A DNA stretch of 64,000 nt, from contig CASCGD010000003.1 of NCBI GenBank assembly GCA_949132985.1, positions 1,147-65,146 of the forward strand. The letters run 5' to 3'. Numbering within the stretch: the first letter of the stretch is position 1; every line of letters begins with the position of its first letter. This stretch comes from an uncultured Lachnospiraceae bacterium. Its GTDB lineage: Bacteria > Bacillota > Clostridia > Lachnospirales > Lachnospiraceae. Made by a program: the position numbers and the translations under genes. The notes under the pieces are model-generated. The model worked only from the letters and a program-made list of their open reading frames with translations. It was not told the DNA's origin and did no database searches. Shown here one piece after another: positions 32,501 through 43,178 of this stretch.

Positions 32501-32891
32501 AAATCCAATTACAGCTACACCCCATGCAACGGGCGGAATCTTTTCCACACCTCATTTTGGCCTTCTGGCAGAGGATGGCCCCGAGGCTTATATTCCGCTG
32601 GACGGCTCAAAAAATGCGCTGTCCATATGGGAAAAGGCCGGCGCGATGCTCGGCGTCGGACAGCCAAAGGACGAGGCGCTTGTATCAGGCATTGCGGGCA
32701 GCGCAGGGATGGCGCGTGAAAATAGCGGAATCAACATACAGATTAATAACAGTCCACACATTATCATACAGGGAAACGCTTCGGAAAGCGACGTCCAGGC
32801 AGGCGTGGCCCTGGGCGCAGAGGATATTATCAATATCGTAAAGGAATATGTTGACGGACGGGCGCGGGTGAGCTTTTCGGGCGGCAGGTGA
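29598..32891 (+). CDS. Tape measure protein (TP901-type core)
   Basis: 1097 aa Ala/Gly-rich; YMALAGW; HATGGI...AEDGPEA.IPL. Confidence 0.95.
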   Translation: MGKAQYMLEVKLGASTTASYNRNINRALKSLDGLESTAKHVAAGAAAAFAAVNISQLAEDAFGTYSKFEQAMRNTAAISNATTAEYEMMEQAAREAGRGTTKTVAESAEALGYMALAGWDAKESVEGLMPILKLSEATGAKLKETSDLVTDSMSAFGLSVRDMGVYLDELVAGNNNSNMTAVMLMETLIGTGGAARSLGASLEDTITAAGVLADNGTKAGKAGTAMNSILTRLAANSKARDALEEIGASVFDAEGNFVGLREAIIEIDKALAGMSTEQRSGYLKDIAGTHYYSQMEYLLASVREGANGAASAWDKLEKKIEDSGGALDQMNATATDTMSASWERMKSAVDDAKISLVDVFGGDVTDFLDHAAAKIPDITDHVTDFVSNNKAEIFDALETGGELIGNVWNIAEGSVTWLLDHEGAVVGALTSIGTALFLKKAVSSATSIVSFLSGLTTPMGVIAGLSGAVGVIAGLGAAVDQANERAGRANLDEHFGDISLSLEELQDIAGEIVHGNDLNTVAEMLDAVGESENALKGVNRALKELEKSSWKIRAGFSLDEQDSEQYVTKVDEYVRQAQEYIDAKGYEVTVGATLLFGADSERTAEASEYANELSERAQGFGRFIQQQIVVALQDDGIIDEAEDALIQHYAQSIDKIKTAISEGQSEARMQAIKVKYSGAELDEEGFLQLADEIGKATEENRDAALAAYESTMAIYNAKKLSDPSYKTYDEDARAAELAFFQQNADAVTNGASYLLESIQSAYPELESAVVQAQGKLSEILEQAFAGDGKGGLLRGDPDAWGNIISSLYDGMVADDPAVQHALEIILSQTEPIRDGLEQAARECEEAGEEIPEAVKSGLQKLDMLGALSGDKDSAWTLFMDAVADNEEYRNVIETAKENGANIPEQISESITGNQVSIENAIDGLYAYSNQYLDQIYSRGFDVDAEVRVNYKTTTKKPPSIYDGTGSYVNPITATPHATGGIFSTPHFGLLAEDGPEAYIPLDGSKNALSIWEKAGAMLGVGQPKDEALVSGIAGSAGMARENSGINIQINNSPHIIIQGNASESDVQAGVALGAEDIINIVKEYVDGRARVSFSGGR

Positions 32892-37381: not shown

Positions 37382-38155
37382 ATGGCAGATTTTAATAATG
37401 CTATCATGACAGACAGCGGCGCGGCACTTTTGGCAAAAGACACTGCCGGTGTCGCTCGAATTAAATTTACCAAGCTGGTAACCGGTTCAGGAGTTTACGC
37501 AGAATCTGAAAAAGCAAGGGAGAATTTACAGTCTTGTACGGGCCTGAAAGAACCAAAGCAGGAGATCCCTTTTTCTTCTATTTCAATGGAAACCGATACA
37601 TGTGTAAAACTTGTTGCGCTTATTTCGAATGCAGAACTTACGACCGGGTATTATGTAAATGAAGTTGGTGTATATGCAGTTGATGAGATGAACGAAGACG
37701 CGGAGCCGGTGCTTTATTCCATCGCGGTTGCAAATATAGCGGATTATTTGCCGCCATATAACGGATTGGTGACATCTACAATCACGCAGGAATATTTTGC
37801 GACGGTAGATAATGCGCTTGAAGTCACAATCCAGACAAACGCCGGGGCCGTGGCTCTTGCGGAAGATTTAGAAGCACTGAAGCAGGAAGTTGACGGGAAA
37901 CAGGATGCAGTTAAGGGGAAAGGGCTGTCAACAGAGGATTATACAACAGACGAAAAACAGAAGCTCGCCGGGATCGATAAAGGTGCAAATAAAACAATTA
38001 TAGACACAGAACTGTCCCCGGAATCCGAAAACCCCGTACAAAACAAGGCAGTGGACGCCGCCATCAAGTCCCTTGGTGCAGCTGTTATTATCAGTGACAC
38101 CGCCCCAGACCGCACAGAAAATGTATTATGGGTAAAACCGGGAGGTAGCACATGA
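37382..38155 (+). CDS. Tail fibre base/stem protein with no apparent receptor-binding domain
   Basis: P2 gpH-like N-terminus (T..G..L.AK, NEVGVYA); GKGLSTEDYT.DEK.KL; ends ISDTAP...VLWVKP. Confidence 0.85.
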   Translation: MADFNNAIMTDSGAALLAKDTAGVARIKFTKLVTGSGVYAESEKARENLQSCTGLKEPKQEIPFSSISMETDTCVKLVALISNAELTTGYYVNEVGVYAVDEMNEDAEPVLYSIAVANIADYLPPYNGLVTSTITQEYFATVDNALEVTIQTNAGAVALAEDLEALKQEVDGKQDAVKGKGLSTEDYTTDEKQKLAGIDKGANKTIIDTELSPESENPVQNKAVDAAIKSLGAAVIISDTAPDRTENVLWVKPGGST

Positions 38156-39039
38156 GCATATTAATACCAAGCACAGAGCCGGGGGTATTGCAGGATGCGG
38201 AGACACTCAAGACGTATAATCCTGATATCGCGGCTTATGAGGAGTGCGATAGCGCGCTGATACCAGCAGATGGTGTTTGGCAGGAGGTATGGCCGGAGCA
38301 CCGGCAGGAGGTACATTATCTGATGCTCTATGACCGGGGCAATGAATGTATGGATGTCACTGGCGGATGGGAATATGTGCAAGAAGCCGGAATGCATAAC
38401 GCAGCATATATAGGCGAAGGAATTTGGCGTACAAAGCGAGAGATTGATTTTTCGGCCTATCCGAAAGGGATGGCGAACAGGCAGGCGCGCTTTATCTCTG
38501 GGTCAAGTCCTCGCAATTACACCTATATTTTCTCGCATGGCTCCTACCTGGAACCCGTGAACAAAAATAGCTATAAGGGATTTGTGTCATTTGACACAGA
38601 ATCCCCGACCAATTTTGTGCCATATATCTATGTATATAGCAATACTTATTATCCAACTACGAACAGAGGAGAAAGAAGGAGCGATTGTTTGTATATCTAT
38701 CATAATTACACCAGCTATTCGGAAACGGAAGAATATGTATATAGCCTTTGGGTGTATCAAGACGACGATTGGCAGACGTGGCTATCAAAGGCAGGGCTGG
38801 ACGCCGCATCTTATGACACACTCGATAGCGTGATGCAGGATGCGGCAGCTCTTGGCGTGCTGCTTGCATCAAGGCAAGCGGTGTCTTACATGATCTACCA
38901 GTGCACCGGTAGTGTTATGGTATCGGCTATCCAGTCAAAGGCATTTTTGGCGGCGCTGGAGGGTAGCCCATATAAGGACAAGATATATGCAAACGAGCAT
39001 TGGGACAAATTTTTGACGATGGTCGGGGTAGAGTTGTAA
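38152..39039 (+). CDS. Tail-tip protein 0 (no leader; ATGA-coupled to the stem gene)
   Basis: Shared N-module ending WQEVWP; LYDRGNECMDVTGGW. Confidence 0.75.
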   Translation: MSILIPSTEPGVLQDAETLKTYNPDIAAYEECDSALIPADGVWQEVWPEHRQEVHYLMLYDRGNECMDVTGGWEYVQEAGMHNAAYIGEGIWRTKREIDFSAYPKGMANRQARFISGSSPRNYTYIFSHGSYLEPVNKNSYKGFVSFDTESPTNFVPYIYVYSNTYYPTTNRGERRSDCLYIYHNYTSYSETEEYVYSLWVYQDDDWQTWLSKAGLDAASYDTLDSVMQDAAALGVLLASRQAVSYMIYQCTGSVMVSAIQSKAFLAALEGSPYKDKIYANEHWDKFLTMVGVEL

Positions 39040-39050
39040 GGAGGAATTAT

Positions 39051-39080
39051 ATGTGTAAGGTTTTTAAGGGGGGGGGGTAA
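39051..39080 (+). promoter_or_regulatory. Leader ORF 1 (MCKVFKGGG*) with G10 tract at 39068-39077
   Basis: AAGGAGG RBS, ATG 39051, TAA directly after the tract. Confidence 0.8.
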
Positions 39081-39107
39081 AACCCCGCGCAGCGCCGCAG
39101 GTGGCGT

Positions 39108-39752
39108 ATGGCAGTAATGGTATGGGACAGCAACAGCCAGGCGTTTGCAGATGCAGAGCCGCCGCTTGCCTATAATCAGCAGCTTGACGCATGGCAGGAG
39201 ACAGAGGGCAATCTGTACAATCCTGGCATTGAGGCGTGGGAAAAGGTGTGGCCAGCAGATGTAAAAGTATATATGGATGCAACCCTTGGATGGCCGCTGG
39301 CAGATGGGCAGACGCTTGGGGCAGACGGATTTGCCCGTCAGAATGCAGACGGGTCGTATACGATCCGGGCGCAGGACGACTCACATACGGTAGTCGGGTG
39401 TAAGGGCATCACATTTGAGCCGCCACAGGGACGCTCTAAGATACACATGACGCTTGACAGTTATAGCCGGAACAATGTCGGGGGCACAAATAACTATGTT
39501 GCTGTCTATGTTGTTGCAAGTAATGTATTAGAGCAAGCCTCGATAGACGCGGCGCAGATCGTATTTAATTCTGTCGCAAAAGGAACTGGCCGTGGCGACG
39601 AAACCGAGCCGGTAGAGATAGGGAAGGATACTGTTATTGATATCAGCCAATACAAATCGTACAGATATTTTTGTATCGGCACATCAACTGGTAGTGGGGG
39701 ATGGTCTACGGGCTGGACGGAGATCACGGTTAGCAATATATATTTTGAGTAA
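39108..39752 (+). CDS. Variable tail-tip protein 1
   Basis: Shared ~48-aa N-module ending AWEKVWP; divergent beta-rich C-domain. Confidence 0.8.
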   Translation: MAVMVWDSNSQAFADAEPPLAYNQQLDAWQETEGNLYNPGIEAWEKVWPADVKVYMDATLGWPLADGQTLGADGFARQNADGSYTIRAQDDSHTVVGCKGITFEPPQGRSKIHMTLDSYSRNNVGGTNNYVAVYVVASNVLEQASIDAAQIVFNSVAKGTGRGDETEPVEIGKDTVIDISQYKSYRYFCIGTSTGSGGWSTGWTEITVSNIYFE

Positions 39753-39765
39753 AGGAGGGAAATAT

Positions 39766-39858
39766 ATGTGTAAAATCAGATCGGGGGGGGTAAAACCTCG
39801 CGCGGCGCCGCAGGTGCGGTATGCCGTTAGTATGGAACAATCGGCTGCAGGCCTTTGA
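39766..39858 (+). promoter_or_regulatory. Leader ORF 2 (MCKIRSGGVKP...) with G8 tract at 39783-39790
   Basis: AAAGGAGG RBS; overlaps the tip ATG out of frame. Confidence 0.8.
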
Positions 39859-40444
39859 GGAGTCGGAGCTGCCGCTTACCTACAATCCTGCCGTAGATGC
39901 ATGGCAGGACACGGAGGGCCTTGTATACAACCACGAGCTGGATGCGTGGGAAAAAGTCTGGCCGGAAATTATCTATTTTGTCAAAAACGGCGTACCGCAA
40001 GCAGGATATACCTGGGCGGACACCTACAAAGGAAATGACGGGAATGCTGGAAGTTATTCCGCGCGGACAGACGGAGATTATTTTGCCCTGTCTGTTAGCG
40101 GGACTGCCACAGCTGGCAAAATGATTGTGTTCCCCGCAATTGAAAAGGCGGGGACATTATGTGCGGAAGATATTGCGGTTACTGCTACGCATGGTAACAA
40201 CCATGTACATTTTGGCTTTGCGCGCGTTGACAGCGCTGGAAAGACAATTATATACGGCGAGGTAGCGGGTGGGTCCAGCGGGTGGGCGTATTGCCTGCCG
40301 CCTAACAGCACCGGAGGCAGCATAGACATATTGCAAAATGAGTTGTCTGCGGGCAGCTGCCCGAAACTTGGGATCTACTGCAACAATTATTATGGATTTT
40401 CCGGCACGCTGCAGATCCGGAATCTCTATTTTGTACCTAATTAA
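39821..40444 (+). CDS. Variable tail-tip protein 2
   Basis: Shared N-module; divergent C-domain. Confidence 0.8.
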   Translation: MPLVWNNRLQAFEESELPLTYNPAVDAWQDTEGLVYNHELDAWEKVWPEIIYFVKNGVPQAGYTWADTYKGNDGNAGSYSARTDGDYFALSVSGTATAGKMIVFPAIEKAGTLCAEDIAVTATHGNNHVHFGFARVDSAGKTIIYGEVAGGSSGWAYCLPPNSTGGSIDILQNELSAGSCPKLGIYCNNYYGFSGTLQIRNLYFVPN

Positions 40445-40457
40445 GGGAGGGAAATAT

Positions 40458-40550
40458 ATGTGTAAAATAAGATCGGGGGGGGTAAACCTCCGCGGGCATC
40501 CGCAGGTGCGGTATGCCGTTAATATGGGACAAACAATTACAGGCGTTTAG
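40458..40550 (+). promoter_or_regulatory. Leader ORF 3 (MCKIRSGGVNL...) with G8 tract at 40475-40482
   Basis: GGGAGG RBS; overlaps the tip ATG out of frame. Confidence 0.8.
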
Positions 40551-41151
40551 AGAGTCAGGGACGCCGCTGGCCTACAACCCTGGGCTGGGAGCATGGCAGG
40601 AAACCGAAGGATGTGTTTATAACTCGCAGCTGGGTGCATGGGAAAAAGTCTGGCCAGGCGAATTATATCTGTACAAGGACGGTGACGAGTGCACGGATAT
40701 TACAGGCGGATGGAAATATCAGCCTTACAATTATTATTCATCAGCATTTACCTGCAAAATGCCAACTATCGAAAGGAGGGCCGACAGCCTATATACAAGG
40801 CTGGTATTTGGACGATCGTTTAATTGCGCTTTAATCGGCACAGCAAATATCATTGATACATCGCGCTACACAAAGATGTGTTGTGAGGTCTCGGGCACAT
40901 GCTCATCAACTAACGCGGCATGTTGGGGCGAAATAGCGGCTTTTGCTGGTGGATACAGCTATAATTATAAAAAACAATACGGATGTGAGATCTGTTACGG
41001 CGGATATGGAGGACACTATGCATCGTCCAATCACGCGCTGTTGGAACTTGATATAACTGATATCAGCAGTGCGGCATTTGCGATAGAGCATGTCTGTGAT
41101 TCGATTGCGGCCCCGGATTTTGTGCAATTATTTAAGTTATGGCTTGAGTAG
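40513..41151 (+). CDS. Variable tail-tip protein 3
   Basis: Shared N-module; LYKDGDECTDITGGW; ends KLWLE. Confidence 0.8.
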   Translation: MPLIWDKQLQAFRESGTPLAYNPGLGAWQETEGCVYNSQLGAWEKVWPGELYLYKDGDECTDITGGWKYQPYNYYSSAFTCKMPTIERRADSLYTRLVFGRSFNCALIGTANIIDTSRYTKMCCEVSGTCSSTNAACWGEIAAFAGGYSYNYKKQYGCEICYGGYGGHYASSNHALLELDITDISSAAFAIEHVCDSIAAPDFVQLFKLWLE

Positions 41152-41202
41152 GGATGCGCCGCATCTCTTTAATTTTACAAAAAAATGAAAGGAAGAGAAT
41201 TA

Positions 41203-41592
41203 ATGGGAAAAATCGTATTTGGCAACAAGGAAATTATCACACAAAGCGTATACCCATACGCGTACAGCAACGGAAAAGTAGTACTAAGGGTGTCAGCACG
41301 CGAAGAAGATGTGTCAGAGAATGACCTGAAACAGCTCAAAGACAATATGCTCCCGATTGAATACTATGAGTGCAAAACAGTCATGGACGCAGAGACGGGA
41401 GCTCTCACAGAAACGGATGCATGGGAACTGAAGGCAACCTATGATAACTACGACTCCGGCGAGTACGTATCATCCTACAAGGACGGCGTATACTCCTGCG
41501 AGATAACGCGTGTGGGAGAAACAGAAAAGGCCGTCCGCAGGAACACGGCAGATATCGCCTATCTTGGTATCATGGCCGGGGTAGAGCTGTAA
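41203..41592 (+). CDS. XkdW-like tail fibre accessory protein
   Basis: Ends ADIAYLGIMAGVEL; lies near the XkdX-like gene. Confidence 0.6.
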   Translation: MGKIVFGNKEIITQSVYPYAYSNGKVVLRVSAREEDVSENDLKQLKDNMLPIEYYECKTVMDAETGALTETDAWELKATYDNYDSGEYVSSYKDGVYSCEITRVGETEKAVRRNTADIAYLGIMAGVEL

Positions 41593-41603
41593 GGAGGATA
41601 TAT

Positions 41604-41672
41604 ATGTGTAAGATTTTTAAGGGGGGGGGTAAAACCCCGCGCAGCGCCGCAGGTGATCTATGGCGTTGCTGA
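41604..41672 (+). promoter_or_regulatory. Leader ORF 4 (MCKIFKGGGKTPRSAAGDLWRC*) with G9 tract at 41621-41629
   Basis: AAGGAGG RBS; stop begins 10 nt after the A of the tip ATG. Confidence 0.8.
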
Positions 41673-42298
41673 TACCGGATGTCGCGGGTGTCTATATAGA
41701 TCAAAAGCCGCCGCTTATCTACAACCATCAGCTAGAGGCATGGCAGGACACCGAGGGATACGCGCATGACAATGCATTTGAGGCGTGGCGCAAGATCTGG
41801 CCGGAGAAGTTATATTTATATACGGATGGCGATGAGTGCGTAGATGTAACGGAAGGGTACGACGGAATTTATACAGAAACAGGCGCGTTTATCACAAAGG
41901 GCCCTGACTCCATAAAAATTTTTGCAGATCGTGGCGATGGTTGGAAACTTGCAAAATTCTGCTCAAGGAATAAGGTGGATTTTACAAAATACAAAAAGCT
42001 TCGTGCGGTTATGTCTGGCAGGGCATGGGATGTTGTCAGTCCAACTGGAACTATCTATAATTGCATTTCAGCACATATATCTTTCTTCCACACGTATTCC
42101 AATGAATGGGGAGATGGGCAGGATCTTGATGTGCCACAATCCATATTACCGTTTAATCAGACTCATAATTTTGAAATGCCGTACAAAGAGTATGTATTAA
42201 ATATTCCGGACGAAGCCGCATATATCGGATGGCGGTCACATGTTGGATTAACCGGAGGAAAGTATGAATTCCGCATCAAACAACTATGGCTGGAATAA
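41660..42298 (+). CDS. Variable tail-tip protein 4
   Basis: Shared N-module; LYTDGDECVDVTEG; ends KQLWLE. Confidence 0.8.
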   Translation: MALLIPDVAGVYIDQKPPLIYNHQLEAWQDTEGYAHDNAFEAWRKIWPEKLYLYTDGDECVDVTEGYDGIYTETGAFITKGPDSIKIFADRGDGWKLAKFCSRNKVDFTKYKKLRAVMSGRAWDVVSPTGTIYNCISAHISFFHTYSNEWGDGQDLDVPQSILPFNQTHNFEMPYKEYVLNIPDEAAYIGWRSHVGLTGGKYEFRIKQLWLE

Positions 42299-42326
42299 AT
42301 CAAACAAAGAAAGCGAGGAAAAGACC

Positions 42327-42467
42327 ATGAACGTAAAAGAATTAGCAAAGAAATATTATCCCACCTATTGGGATATCAACCGCATGCGCAATCTTGTAGC
42401 GGCAGGCAAGTTGTCTGAGGCAGACTATCAGGAGATCACAGGCAGTACATACCGCGCCACGGAGTAA
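42327..42467 (+). CDS. XkdX-family protein
   Basis: KKYY..YW......LV..GKLS..DYQEITG..Y. Confidence 0.85.
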   Translation: MNVKELAKKYYPTYWDINRMRNLVAAGKLSEADYQEITGSTYRATE

Positions 42468-42477
42468 GGAGGATTAG

Positions 42478-42546
42478 ATGTGTAAGATTTTTAGGGGGGG
42501 GGGTAAAGCACCCTCGCGCAGCGCCGCAGGTGCGGTATGCCGTTAA
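42478..42546 (+). promoter_or_regulatory. Leader ORF 5 (MCKIFRGGGKAPSRSAAGAVCR*) with G10 tract at 42494-42503
   Basis: AAGGAGG RBS; stop begins 7 nt after the A of the tip ATG. Confidence 0.8.
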
Positions 42547-43125
42547 TATGGGACAAACAATTAAAAGCATTTGTAGACACGGCTCCGCCGCTGCTCTACG
42601 ACCCGGCCATAGAGGCCTACGGAGATACCGAGGGTTATGTGCACGACAATGCACTTGAGGCTTGGCGCAAAGTCTGGCCCGCACGGCTGTATCTCTATCA
42701 TGAGGGTGGAGAGTGTGCAGGTATTACCGGTGGATGGGATGCGTATCCATACAAACTTACGGGATGGGGGGAGCGAGCTTGCGCCAACTCTGGTTAAAGG
42801 GGTATCCGATATGAGCGCATCAATGCAGAGCCCATATGCGGGAGCAGTAGCGACATGTGCCACCATACAGATAGACAGGTTTGGCAAGTTATGTGCTATA
42901 TGCTCTGGGAGCGCGCAGATACACTCGGGAGTTACGTTGTGTTTGGCACCGGTTATATCGGAAAGCCAACGAGAGGTTGCTGTATATTCCGTTATTGATA
43001 TGGGAACTACAAAAACAGATGAACAGATTATTGCAGATATATCGCAGATAAGCGGAAGCCAACATGTGATCTTTCGGATGGTTGCTAATTGTAATGTAAC
43101 AATCAAGCAAGTATGGCTTGAGTAA
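42537..43125 (+). pseudogene. Variable tail-tip protein 5, frameshifted at G6 (42766-42771)
   Basis: Removing one G joins 42537..42797 to 42637..43125, giving a product ending KQVWLE. Confidence 0.8.
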
Positions 43126-43178
43126 GGGGATGCGATCGCATCTCTTTCATTTTGTAAAAAGAGGGGAGGGAGATAATC

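Follow-up and report, generated by a model that had tools for sequence, protein, structure and literature searches.

Downstream of the short tail-fibre gene of a gut prophage in the window (the whole 64,000-nucleotide stretch of DNA analysed here) lies an array of paralogous tip genes, five of which begin behind predicted hairpins preceded by short leaders with G-runs (Table 1). This arrangement raises the question of whether the hairpins hold the tips silent until a leader opens them or only reflect the local composition. The tips show no convincing family in Pfam or PHROGs; their modelled fold shows a weak match (TM about 0.4) to carbohydrate-binding modules and tailspike domains, with tip 3 predicted to combine shared N-terminal β-hairpins with a C-terminal jelly-roll similar to carbohydrate-binding modules. 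From this weak fold match and the position of the array after the fibre gene, we infer that they are alternative tail-tip, putative receptor-binding proteins of a myovirus-type prophage. The start of the ungated first paralogue is predicted to be open (opening energy 4.7 kcal/mol), and tip 5 is present in other samples in an intact form of 195 aa.

Table 1. Features of the tip-gene array in window coordinates; hairpins are predicted, and stops are given relative to the tip start.
Feature	Position	Strand	Remarks
Short tail-fibre protein, 5′ of the tip array	37382..38155	+	PF12571, phrog_7037
Ungated first tip paralogue	38152..39039	+	Start overlaps the fibre-gene stop; strong SD; without a tract
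Leader ORF 1	39051..39080	+	Strong SD 39038-39044; G10 39068-39077
Hairpin 1, copy 1	39068..39088	+	G-tract pairs with a C-rich arm; loop holds the stop codon
Hairpin 2 of tip 1	39087..39112	+	5-bp core 39092-39107; SD in a 6-nt loop
Tip 1	39108..39752	+	214 aa
Leader ORF 2	39766..39858	+	G8 39783-39790; read-through frame, stop at +35
Hairpin 2 of tip 2	39802..39827	+	AGGU tetraloop; A and U of the AUG bulged in the MFE
Tip 2	39821..40444	+	207 aa
Leader ORF 3	40458..40550	+	G8 40475-40482; read-through frame, stop at +35
Hairpin 2 of tip 3	40495..40517	+	AGGU tetraloop; all of the AUG paired
Tip 3	40513..41151	+	212 aa
Leader ORF 4	41604..41672	+	G9 41621-41629; coupling frame, stop at +10 (putatively ON)
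Hairpin 2 of tip 4	41641..41669	+	9-bp outer stem reaching codons 1-4
Tip 4	41660..42298	+	212 aa
Leader ORF 5	42478..42546	+	G10 42494-42503; coupling frame, stop at +7
Hairpin 2 core of tip 5	42523..42536	+	5 bp, AGGU tetraloop
Tip 5	42537..43125	+	Frameshifted at an internal G6 run 42766-42771; 86-aa product

Upstream of each gated tip is a leader ORF with a strong Shine-Dalgarno (SD) sequence and a run of 8–10 Gs, a simple repeat that determines the reading frame of the leader. In all five leaders, which of three stops is reached depends on the length of the tract: the tract-adjacent TAA at −30, a stop at +4 to +10, or the end of a long read-through frame at +35 to +119. Leader ORF 1 ends at the tract-adjacent TAA, with the AUG of tip 1 lying 30 nt further on, which would be the OFF state. 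The tracts lie 30–33 nt 5′ of the tips, and no tract length in the five-leader frame table produces a leader–tip fusion, which is prevented by a fixed in-frame stop. Among 18 distinct leader types collected via protein homology, all 18 have a frame with a stop at +4, +7 or +10, in which the upstream ORF runs through the structure and ends close to the downstream start. Because the third frame of the window-type leaders crosses the hairpin too, the assignment of ON and OFF is not unique. The SD of the gated tips is weak (duplexes of −6 to −8 kcal/mol versus −11 to −13 kcal/mol for the leaders), always 4 nt from the AUG and within a GC-rich fold, and the N-terminus of each gated tip is complete from its own AUG and matches that of the ungated paralogue. 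Leader–tip fusion, intron-like removal and hopping are excluded by this completeness together with the in-frame stop after every tract.

The initial annotation described covarying hairpins that pair over the SD and, in tips 2–4, over the AUG. The arm sequences it quoted for the five tips are all present at their positions, and RNAfold returns the stems for tips 1, 3, 4 and 5 and only a one-register variant for tip 2. A second small stem between the G-tract and a C-rich arm around the TAAA (hairpin 1) forms at the equivalent position in all five copies. The hairpins can be read in the sequence; what was said of them is overstated. The pairing probability of the A, G, G and U of the SD stays at 0–0.15 in tips 2, 3 and 5; in tip 1 it does not exceed 0.5, and only in tip 4 is the SD partly paired (A and G, 0.91 and 0.98). 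In tips 1, 2, 3 and 5 the AGGU core is left unpaired in the loop with only the last G of the SD paired, and these models point to an SD that is caged by a loop of 4–6 nt rather than base-paired. Pairing of the AUG holds fully for tip 3 (0.95–1.0) and shrinks to UG in tip 4 and to G in tip 2. The hairpin 2 of tip 1 is the weakest of the five and that of tip 4 the strongest, its arm fitting its own coding start. Hairpin 1 was also considered as an insulator of hairpin 2 from the G-run and rejected, as in four of the five copies the opening energy did not fall when its C-rich arm was knocked out in silico.

The most serious rival, which we regard as improbable, accepts the switch as real and takes the hairpins as incidental: the tips would be silent from a weak SD and a need for reinitiation, and the GC-rich spacer would fold anyway. 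The feeble SD duplexes given above favor it, as does the failure of the claimed covariation. The five-copy RNAalifold covariation term is a penalty (+1.84 kcal/mol), one of nine pairs is doubly changed, and no common fold is recovered. Likewise, RNAalifold does not recover the SD/AUG hairpin from 14 distinct homologous types, and a consensus structure with compensatory changes is absent from this leader family across the five copies and the 14 types. The tip-3 structure scored on these types is 44% paired, not above shuffles (198/500), an alternative 5-bp helix kept in 14/14 types with one compensatory change is not significant (39/500), and Rfam gives no match at E ≤ 1. One 5′ arm is common to tips 1, 4 and 5 and one 3′ part to tips 2, 3 and 5, so the arm differences reflect mosaicism and register shift. 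Composition alone accounts for much of the fold stability, the mean z against dinucleotide shuffles being only 0.46; z-scores of −3.1 to −3.7 are seen for tips 3 and 4 only, and only in the −45..+15 window. When the 5′ arm alone is shuffled, the fractions for tips 1–5 are 0.45, 0.04, 0.04, 0.004 and 0.21, with tips 1 and 5 not above the shuffles. Synonymous codons favor pairing in only two of the 14 types (tip 4 and L014), and general synonymous-codon selection for pairing is rejected. Arms are reshuffled between paralogues and strict matching is absent, which fits incidental folding; against it, cognate arm/coding pairs are better than swapped ones by 1.0–1.3 kcal/mol in the 14 types (permutation p 0.002–0.03).

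What the models suggest is conserved is occlusion of the start rather than a fixed set of base pairs. The predicted energy of opening the start region is 10.2 kcal/mol for gated starts (18 leader types), as opposed to 6.0 for ungated paralogues (p = 3e-4) and 4.5 for other prophage genes (p = 2e-7), with p values overstated because the leader types are related to one another and with GC content accounting for much of the gap. Inhibitory structure around the downstream start is, accordingly, a prediction for the gated tips as a class. The AT-rich types L010 and L012 (5.8 and 7.2 kcal/mol) overlap the range of ungated starts, which reach 9.0 kcal/mol, and so do some weak natural mosaics such as L017, at 7.0 kcal/mol. 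Replacing the 5′ arm in silico reduces the opening energy to 3–4 kcal/mol in tips 2–5, and the hairpin stays, at 9–15 kcal/mol in window-type leaders, when a ribosome is placed at the tract stop in the model. Incidental folding is further opposed by the spacers of the window-type leaders, which are 51–73% GC, and by several control genes with equally weak SDs whose starts are yet open. The earlier proposal of tips that are silent by default, as a leader-dependent switch requires, is thereby partly sustained: the leader switch exists, its tracts vary, and the predicted occlusion, the weak SD and the hairpin that survives the modelled ribosome agree with it, whereas covariation and a base-paired SD, offered as its proof, fail within the family.

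We consider it likely that the hairpins lock the genes for alternative tail-tip proteins OFF by default, as part of a phase-variable switch that works by translational coupling. A ribosome stopping at the TAA after the tract (−30) would leave hairpin 2 intact and the tip OFF, and one in the +4 to +10 frame would melt the hairpin and reinitiate, or free the site, turning the tip ON. Low or partial output might come from the frame with long read-through (+35 to +119). Replication slippage would flip each tract separately, yielding sibling phages with different tip sets in addition to the constitutive first tip.

The hairpin by itself is a textbook coupling element, translational coupling by unfolding or scanning being established (PMC12548453). 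In MS2 coat-lysis, f1 VII-IX and E. coli rpmI-rplT (reviewed in PMC12548453), a structure-hidden start is likewise opened by ribosomes of the upstream ORF, and an upstream stop ahead of the hairpin abolishes coupling, as proposed here; the prophage differs in its dedicated mini-leader, in the hypermutable G-run that sets the stop, and in having five copies per operon. In pil1 of Streptococcus gallolyticus (Danne et al. 2014, PMC3894217), too, a leader repeat shifts the frame and the ribosome reaches a stem-loop or does not. There, however, the repeat is GCAGA and the stem-loop an intrinsic transcription terminator before the whole operon. The phage instead provides each gene with its own mononucleotide run and start-site hairpin, the latter lacking a U-tract.

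That precedent of a repeat in a leader (PMC3894217), and a Rho factor encoded by the host, would suit pil1-type attenuation or polarity, in which the leader would control transcription, either with hairpin 2 as the terminator or through Rho sites laid bare on untranslated tips. We deem this very unlikely, as none of the leaders has a called terminator-like site, hairpin 2 is not followed by a U-tract, and termination at tip 1 would silence the later tips and the lysis genes, but the tracts vary independently in many combinations. Just as unlikely is recoding, in which the hairpins would promote ribosomal frameshifting, hopping or polymerase slippage at the G-run and so set a fixed tip ratio per cell: a G-run followed by hairpins does look like a recoding cassette and might add leakiness, and G8 could pair with the anti-SD (−10 kcal/mol), but the length variants are at the DNA level and the complete tip N-termini make a fusion unnecessary.

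The coupling switch is consistent with the variation between samples. In ten assemblies of one related phage the tip region differs by the length of three G-tracts (G7–G10), each varying independently, and otherwise only in that one assembly has three SNPs and another carries a different lysis allele; A6–7 and G5–6 runs are invariant in the same assemblies. Near-identical contigs show many tract combinations, leader ORF 3 has G9 in the 99.6% identical L009, and two further phage sets differ by G8/G9 only. Tract lengths were taken from contigs, and the variation is between samples. That the differences are sequencing or assembly errors at error-prone homopolymers, with hairpins just damping minor tail proteins constitutively, is scarcely believable given that G7, G8, G9 and G10 all occur, that other runs are invariant, and that phages unrelated to this one show the three-frame layout again, one version of it with poly-C. 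Phage contingency loci offer a comparison (PMC12633550): in Fletchervirus (Sorensen et al. 2021, PMID 34107245, via PMC12633550), G7–11 tracts vary receptor-binding proteins (RBPs) in a bet-hedging manner, as far as the source consulted goes, and the tracts vary here too. As described in that source, they lie within the RBP genes, unlike those of the prophage, which are in the upstream leader and would act via coupling, leaving the protein intact; at the five leaders the tracts lie ahead of the tip genes, and the fixed in-frame stop keeps them from shifting the frame of a tip. In the homologues L209 and L211 the tract is intragenic.

The two-hairpin layout recurs in unrelated phages. For 27 leader types from other phages, the opening energy is 11.5, against 6.1 for background genes from these loci, and both other frames usually stop before the hairpin. 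A frame stopping near the start is found in 24/27 of this broad set versus 68% of the background, and it was dropped as the sole discriminator. In one unrelated family a stem that pairs with the SD is kept through changes on one side and on both (82% paired, 0/500 shuffles), and the covariation term is −0.45, which is modest support; the SD-pairing stems of this family are long and its SDs strong (−12 to −16), and therefore in need of masking. This family, too, speaks against incidental hairpins. Searches of relatives and family genomes and protein-seeded viral and metagenome scans returned little, and a metagenome pattern scan gave no convincing leader among the matches read. In the openly accessible literature we found nothing on this combination.

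A G-run switch of this kind probably gives the virus random variation in its host-binding proteins. We lean slightly towards seeing in it an unpublished, widespread two-hairpin cassette (a poly-G leader with tract-masking and start-masking stems) that serves phages of gut Firmicutes as a per-gene three-level dial (OFF, low and ON) for alternative tail tips, that has arisen in, or diverged into, several forms unrelated in sequence, and that allows combinatorial host-range hedging without a recombinase or reverse transcriptase. If so, temperate gut phages would vary their receptor-binding kit through an enzyme-free switch of roughly 70 bases that annotation pipelines overlook, since the tip genes seem undamaged and the leaders fall below the length at which ORFs are called. 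Such a switch would be the counterpart of pil1 attenuation at the level of translation and would offer synthetic biology a compact stochastic element; the tract length in a metagenome would give the state of each tip, and host range may differ between sibling particles.

The window carries a prophage of the myovirus type (terminase, portal, head, sheath and tape measure genes), in which the baseplate genes are followed by a short fibre gene, a first paralogue coupled to the fibre gene, five further paralogues of ~200 aa each (tips 1–5) and the lysis genes. The paralogues have in common an N-terminus of ~65 aa, which recurs in about 300 protein clusters, and diverge behind it; most of the related contigs come from mouse-gut data. 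Tip 3, as modelled with AlphaFold (pLDDT 86), ends in a C-terminal jelly-roll akin to carbohydrate-binding modules and to domains of tailspikes (TM about 0.4). Given this weak fold match and the gene position after the baseplate and fibre genes, the paralogues can reasonably be regarded as putative tail tip proteins. Terminator-like hairpins are found 3′ of tips 3 and 5; since both lie within the late operon, 5′ of the lysis genes, transcription must get past them by leakiness or antitermination.

Features of the tip locus, its relatives and the spacer-matched sites (window coordinates unless a contig or stretch is named)
Feature	Position	Remark
Short fibre gene	37382-38155	3′ of baseplate genes
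First paralogue	38152-39039	start codon overlaps fibre-gene stop codon (coupled)
Terminator-like hairpin	41150-41168	3′ of tip 3
Internal G6 run	42766-42771	tip 5
Terminator-like hairpin	43124-43147	3′ of tip 5
Poly-C leader	L010:4963-4969	5′ of tip-3 homologue; stops -28, -24, +7
Intragenic poly-G	L209:1430-1500	homologous tip gene, near codon 22; about G9
Intragenic poly-G	L211:1430-1500	homologous tip gene, near codon 22; about G7
Poly-G leaders	C88: 2372, 3529, 4829	tail module of second prophage
Spacer-matched sites	11879, 24494, 32596, 34301, 35411, 38381, 41490	perfect at 32596 and 35411

Each gated tip is preceded by a leader ORF with a strong Shine-Dalgarno sequence (SD) and a run of G8–10. 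In frame 1 the leader stops at a TAA directly 3′ of the run (-30 or -33 from the tip AUG), in frame 2, the near-stop frame, at +7 or +10 in the window leaders, and in frame 3 it reads through to +35 to +119; no tract length joins leader and tip into one reading frame. Currently, tip 1 is in the TAA frame, tips 2 and 3 in read-through and tips 4 and 5 in the near-stop frame. A near-stop frame ending at +4, +7 or +10 is kept in 18/18 leader types found via protein homology. This frame would represent the ON state, since in three related stretches (L010, L012 and L226) the stops of both remaining frames lie upstream; the L010 leader follows the same three-frame logic with poly-C. Tip 5 itself is broken at an internal G6 run, which is G5 in intact copies; its cluster has intact (195 aa) and shorter forms side by side, and this run is possibly a second, slower switch.

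The initial annotation held that covarying hairpins hide the ribosome-binding site and start codon of every tip. All the quoted arms are present in the window, and RNAfold recovers both stems in 5/5 copies: hairpin 1, pairing the G-tract with a C-rich arm around the stop codon, and hairpin 2 at the tip start site. The SD is paired only in tip 4, and there partially, its AGGU core forming the loop in tips 1, 2, 3 and 5; the AUG, said to be paired in tips 2–4, is fully so in tip 3, partially in tip 4 and hardly at all in tip 2. Strict covariation was found neither in the five copies, whose consensus fold has a covariation term of +1.84 (a penalty), nor among 14 distinct homologous types, from which no common SD/AUG hairpin was recovered and on which the tip-3 structure does no better than shuffles. 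This reflects the reassortment of 5′ arms and 3′ parts between paralogues and the differing stem registers seen in the alignment. The observation is partly confirmed; its interpretation, that tips are silent by default under a leader-dependent switch, is partly supported, with predicted occlusion rather than covariation or a base-paired SD speaking for it.

For gated leader types (n=18), the mean ensemble cost of unfolding positions -14 to +3 is 10.2 kcal/mol, as compared to 6.0 in ungated family members (n=9; p=3e-4) and 4.5 in other prophage genes (n=27; p=2e-7), both p-values being optimistic because the leader types are mutually related. Composition explains much of this effect, the mean z against dinucleotide shuffles being only 0.46; tips 2, 3 and 4 do better than shuffles of their own 5′ arm, and tips 1 and 5 do not. 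Natural arm/coding pairs are 1.0–1.3 kcal/mol more stable than swapped ones (14 types; p 0.002–0.03), and the five window copies rank 4 of 120 for coding swaps and 20 of 120 for arm swaps. The tips form weak SD duplexes (-6 to -8 kcal/mol, versus -11 to -13 for the leaders) with invariant spacing. Together, these features indicate that occlusion looks selected, but loosely. Incidental folding combined with weak-SD reinitiation is an unlikely, if the strongest, competing account.

We propose, with fair confidence, that a tip is kept silent by hairpin 2 and its weak SD unless a ribosome translating the leader in the near-stop frame unfolds the stem and thereby couples to the tip, slippage in the G-run flipping the state. 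Coupled gene pairs in which a ribosome melts start-site structure are known (PMC12548453). With a ribosome modelled at the tract stop, hairpin 2, which begins about 9–12 nt beyond it (tips 1–4), stays folded. The read-through frame crosses hairpin 2 too, and partial output is possible, for which the MS2 coat-lysis pair (-50 nt) offers precedent. The G-run itself mimics an SD (-10 kcal/mol), and our guess is that hairpin 1 masks it. Transcriptional attenuation or Rho polarity appears improbable. Hairpin 2 has no U-tract, which speaks against attenuation; the host does encode Rho, as polarity would need. Recoding is comparably doubtful.

Ten assemblies from a related phage with three tips have the same tip region apart from tract lengths (G7–G10), save that one contig has three SNPs and another carries a different lysis allele. 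Length changes in the three tracts are independent of one another, and the A6–7 and G5–6 runs are constant; this variation is between samples, as read from assembled contigs, and we consider assembly error a very improbable source of it. A G8/G9 difference also occurs in two further phage sets and between window tip 3 and its counterpart in L009.

Our literature search found no paper on this leader-tract-hairpin combination. The pil1 locus of S. gallolyticus likewise has a repeat in the leader and a stem-loop target (PMC3894217), but no terminator-like site was found at the window leaders. Fletchervirus poly-G tracts (PMC12633550) serve the same purpose, whereas the window tracts act from outside the gene; a Fletchervirus-like alternative exists within the tip family in the intragenic tracts of L209 and L211, both out of frame.

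Elsewhere in the assembly, a type I-C-like CRISPR array (contig C6; L003, L004) has 7/37 spacers matching the window prophage, six of the seven matches having a GAA 3′ flank, which on the opposite strand reads as a TTC PAM. Such self-targeting points to an anti-CRISPR, to Cas proteins that are inactive or to a bin of mixed strains. AT-rich parts of contigs C34 and C59 have clusters of G7–G9 tracts, which may mark phase-variable host loci for surface glycans.

A pattern search free of any hairpin assumption (SD, ATG, G8, stop) matched 76 viral stretches. We analysed 27 distinct stretches that precede a clear gene, three of them from a second prophage of the same genome (C88), whose sequence-unrelated leaders combine hairpins that pair the SD with a frame stopping at +1, 5′ of paralogous genes of ~300 aa. 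In these 27, opening of the start region takes 11.5 kcal/mol versus 6.1 for other genes of the same loci, and most display the same two stems, a fully paired SD and one frame whose end falls within or next to the start codon. In one leader family the stem is preserved through G-U/G-C exchanges and some double substitutions (82% paired; 0/500 shuffles), with one slid control reaching a similar covariation score. Thus, these sister cassettes give the structural idea of the initial annotation better support than do the five tip copies it quoted. Poly-G leaders of variable length (G8–G10) also precede genes unlike tail tips (L030, L037, L039, L063; L032, L098), which code for a long, possibly secreted protein and, judged by eye, a sigma-factor-like protein. 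Hence, the poly-G leader device may gate other kinds of genes too.
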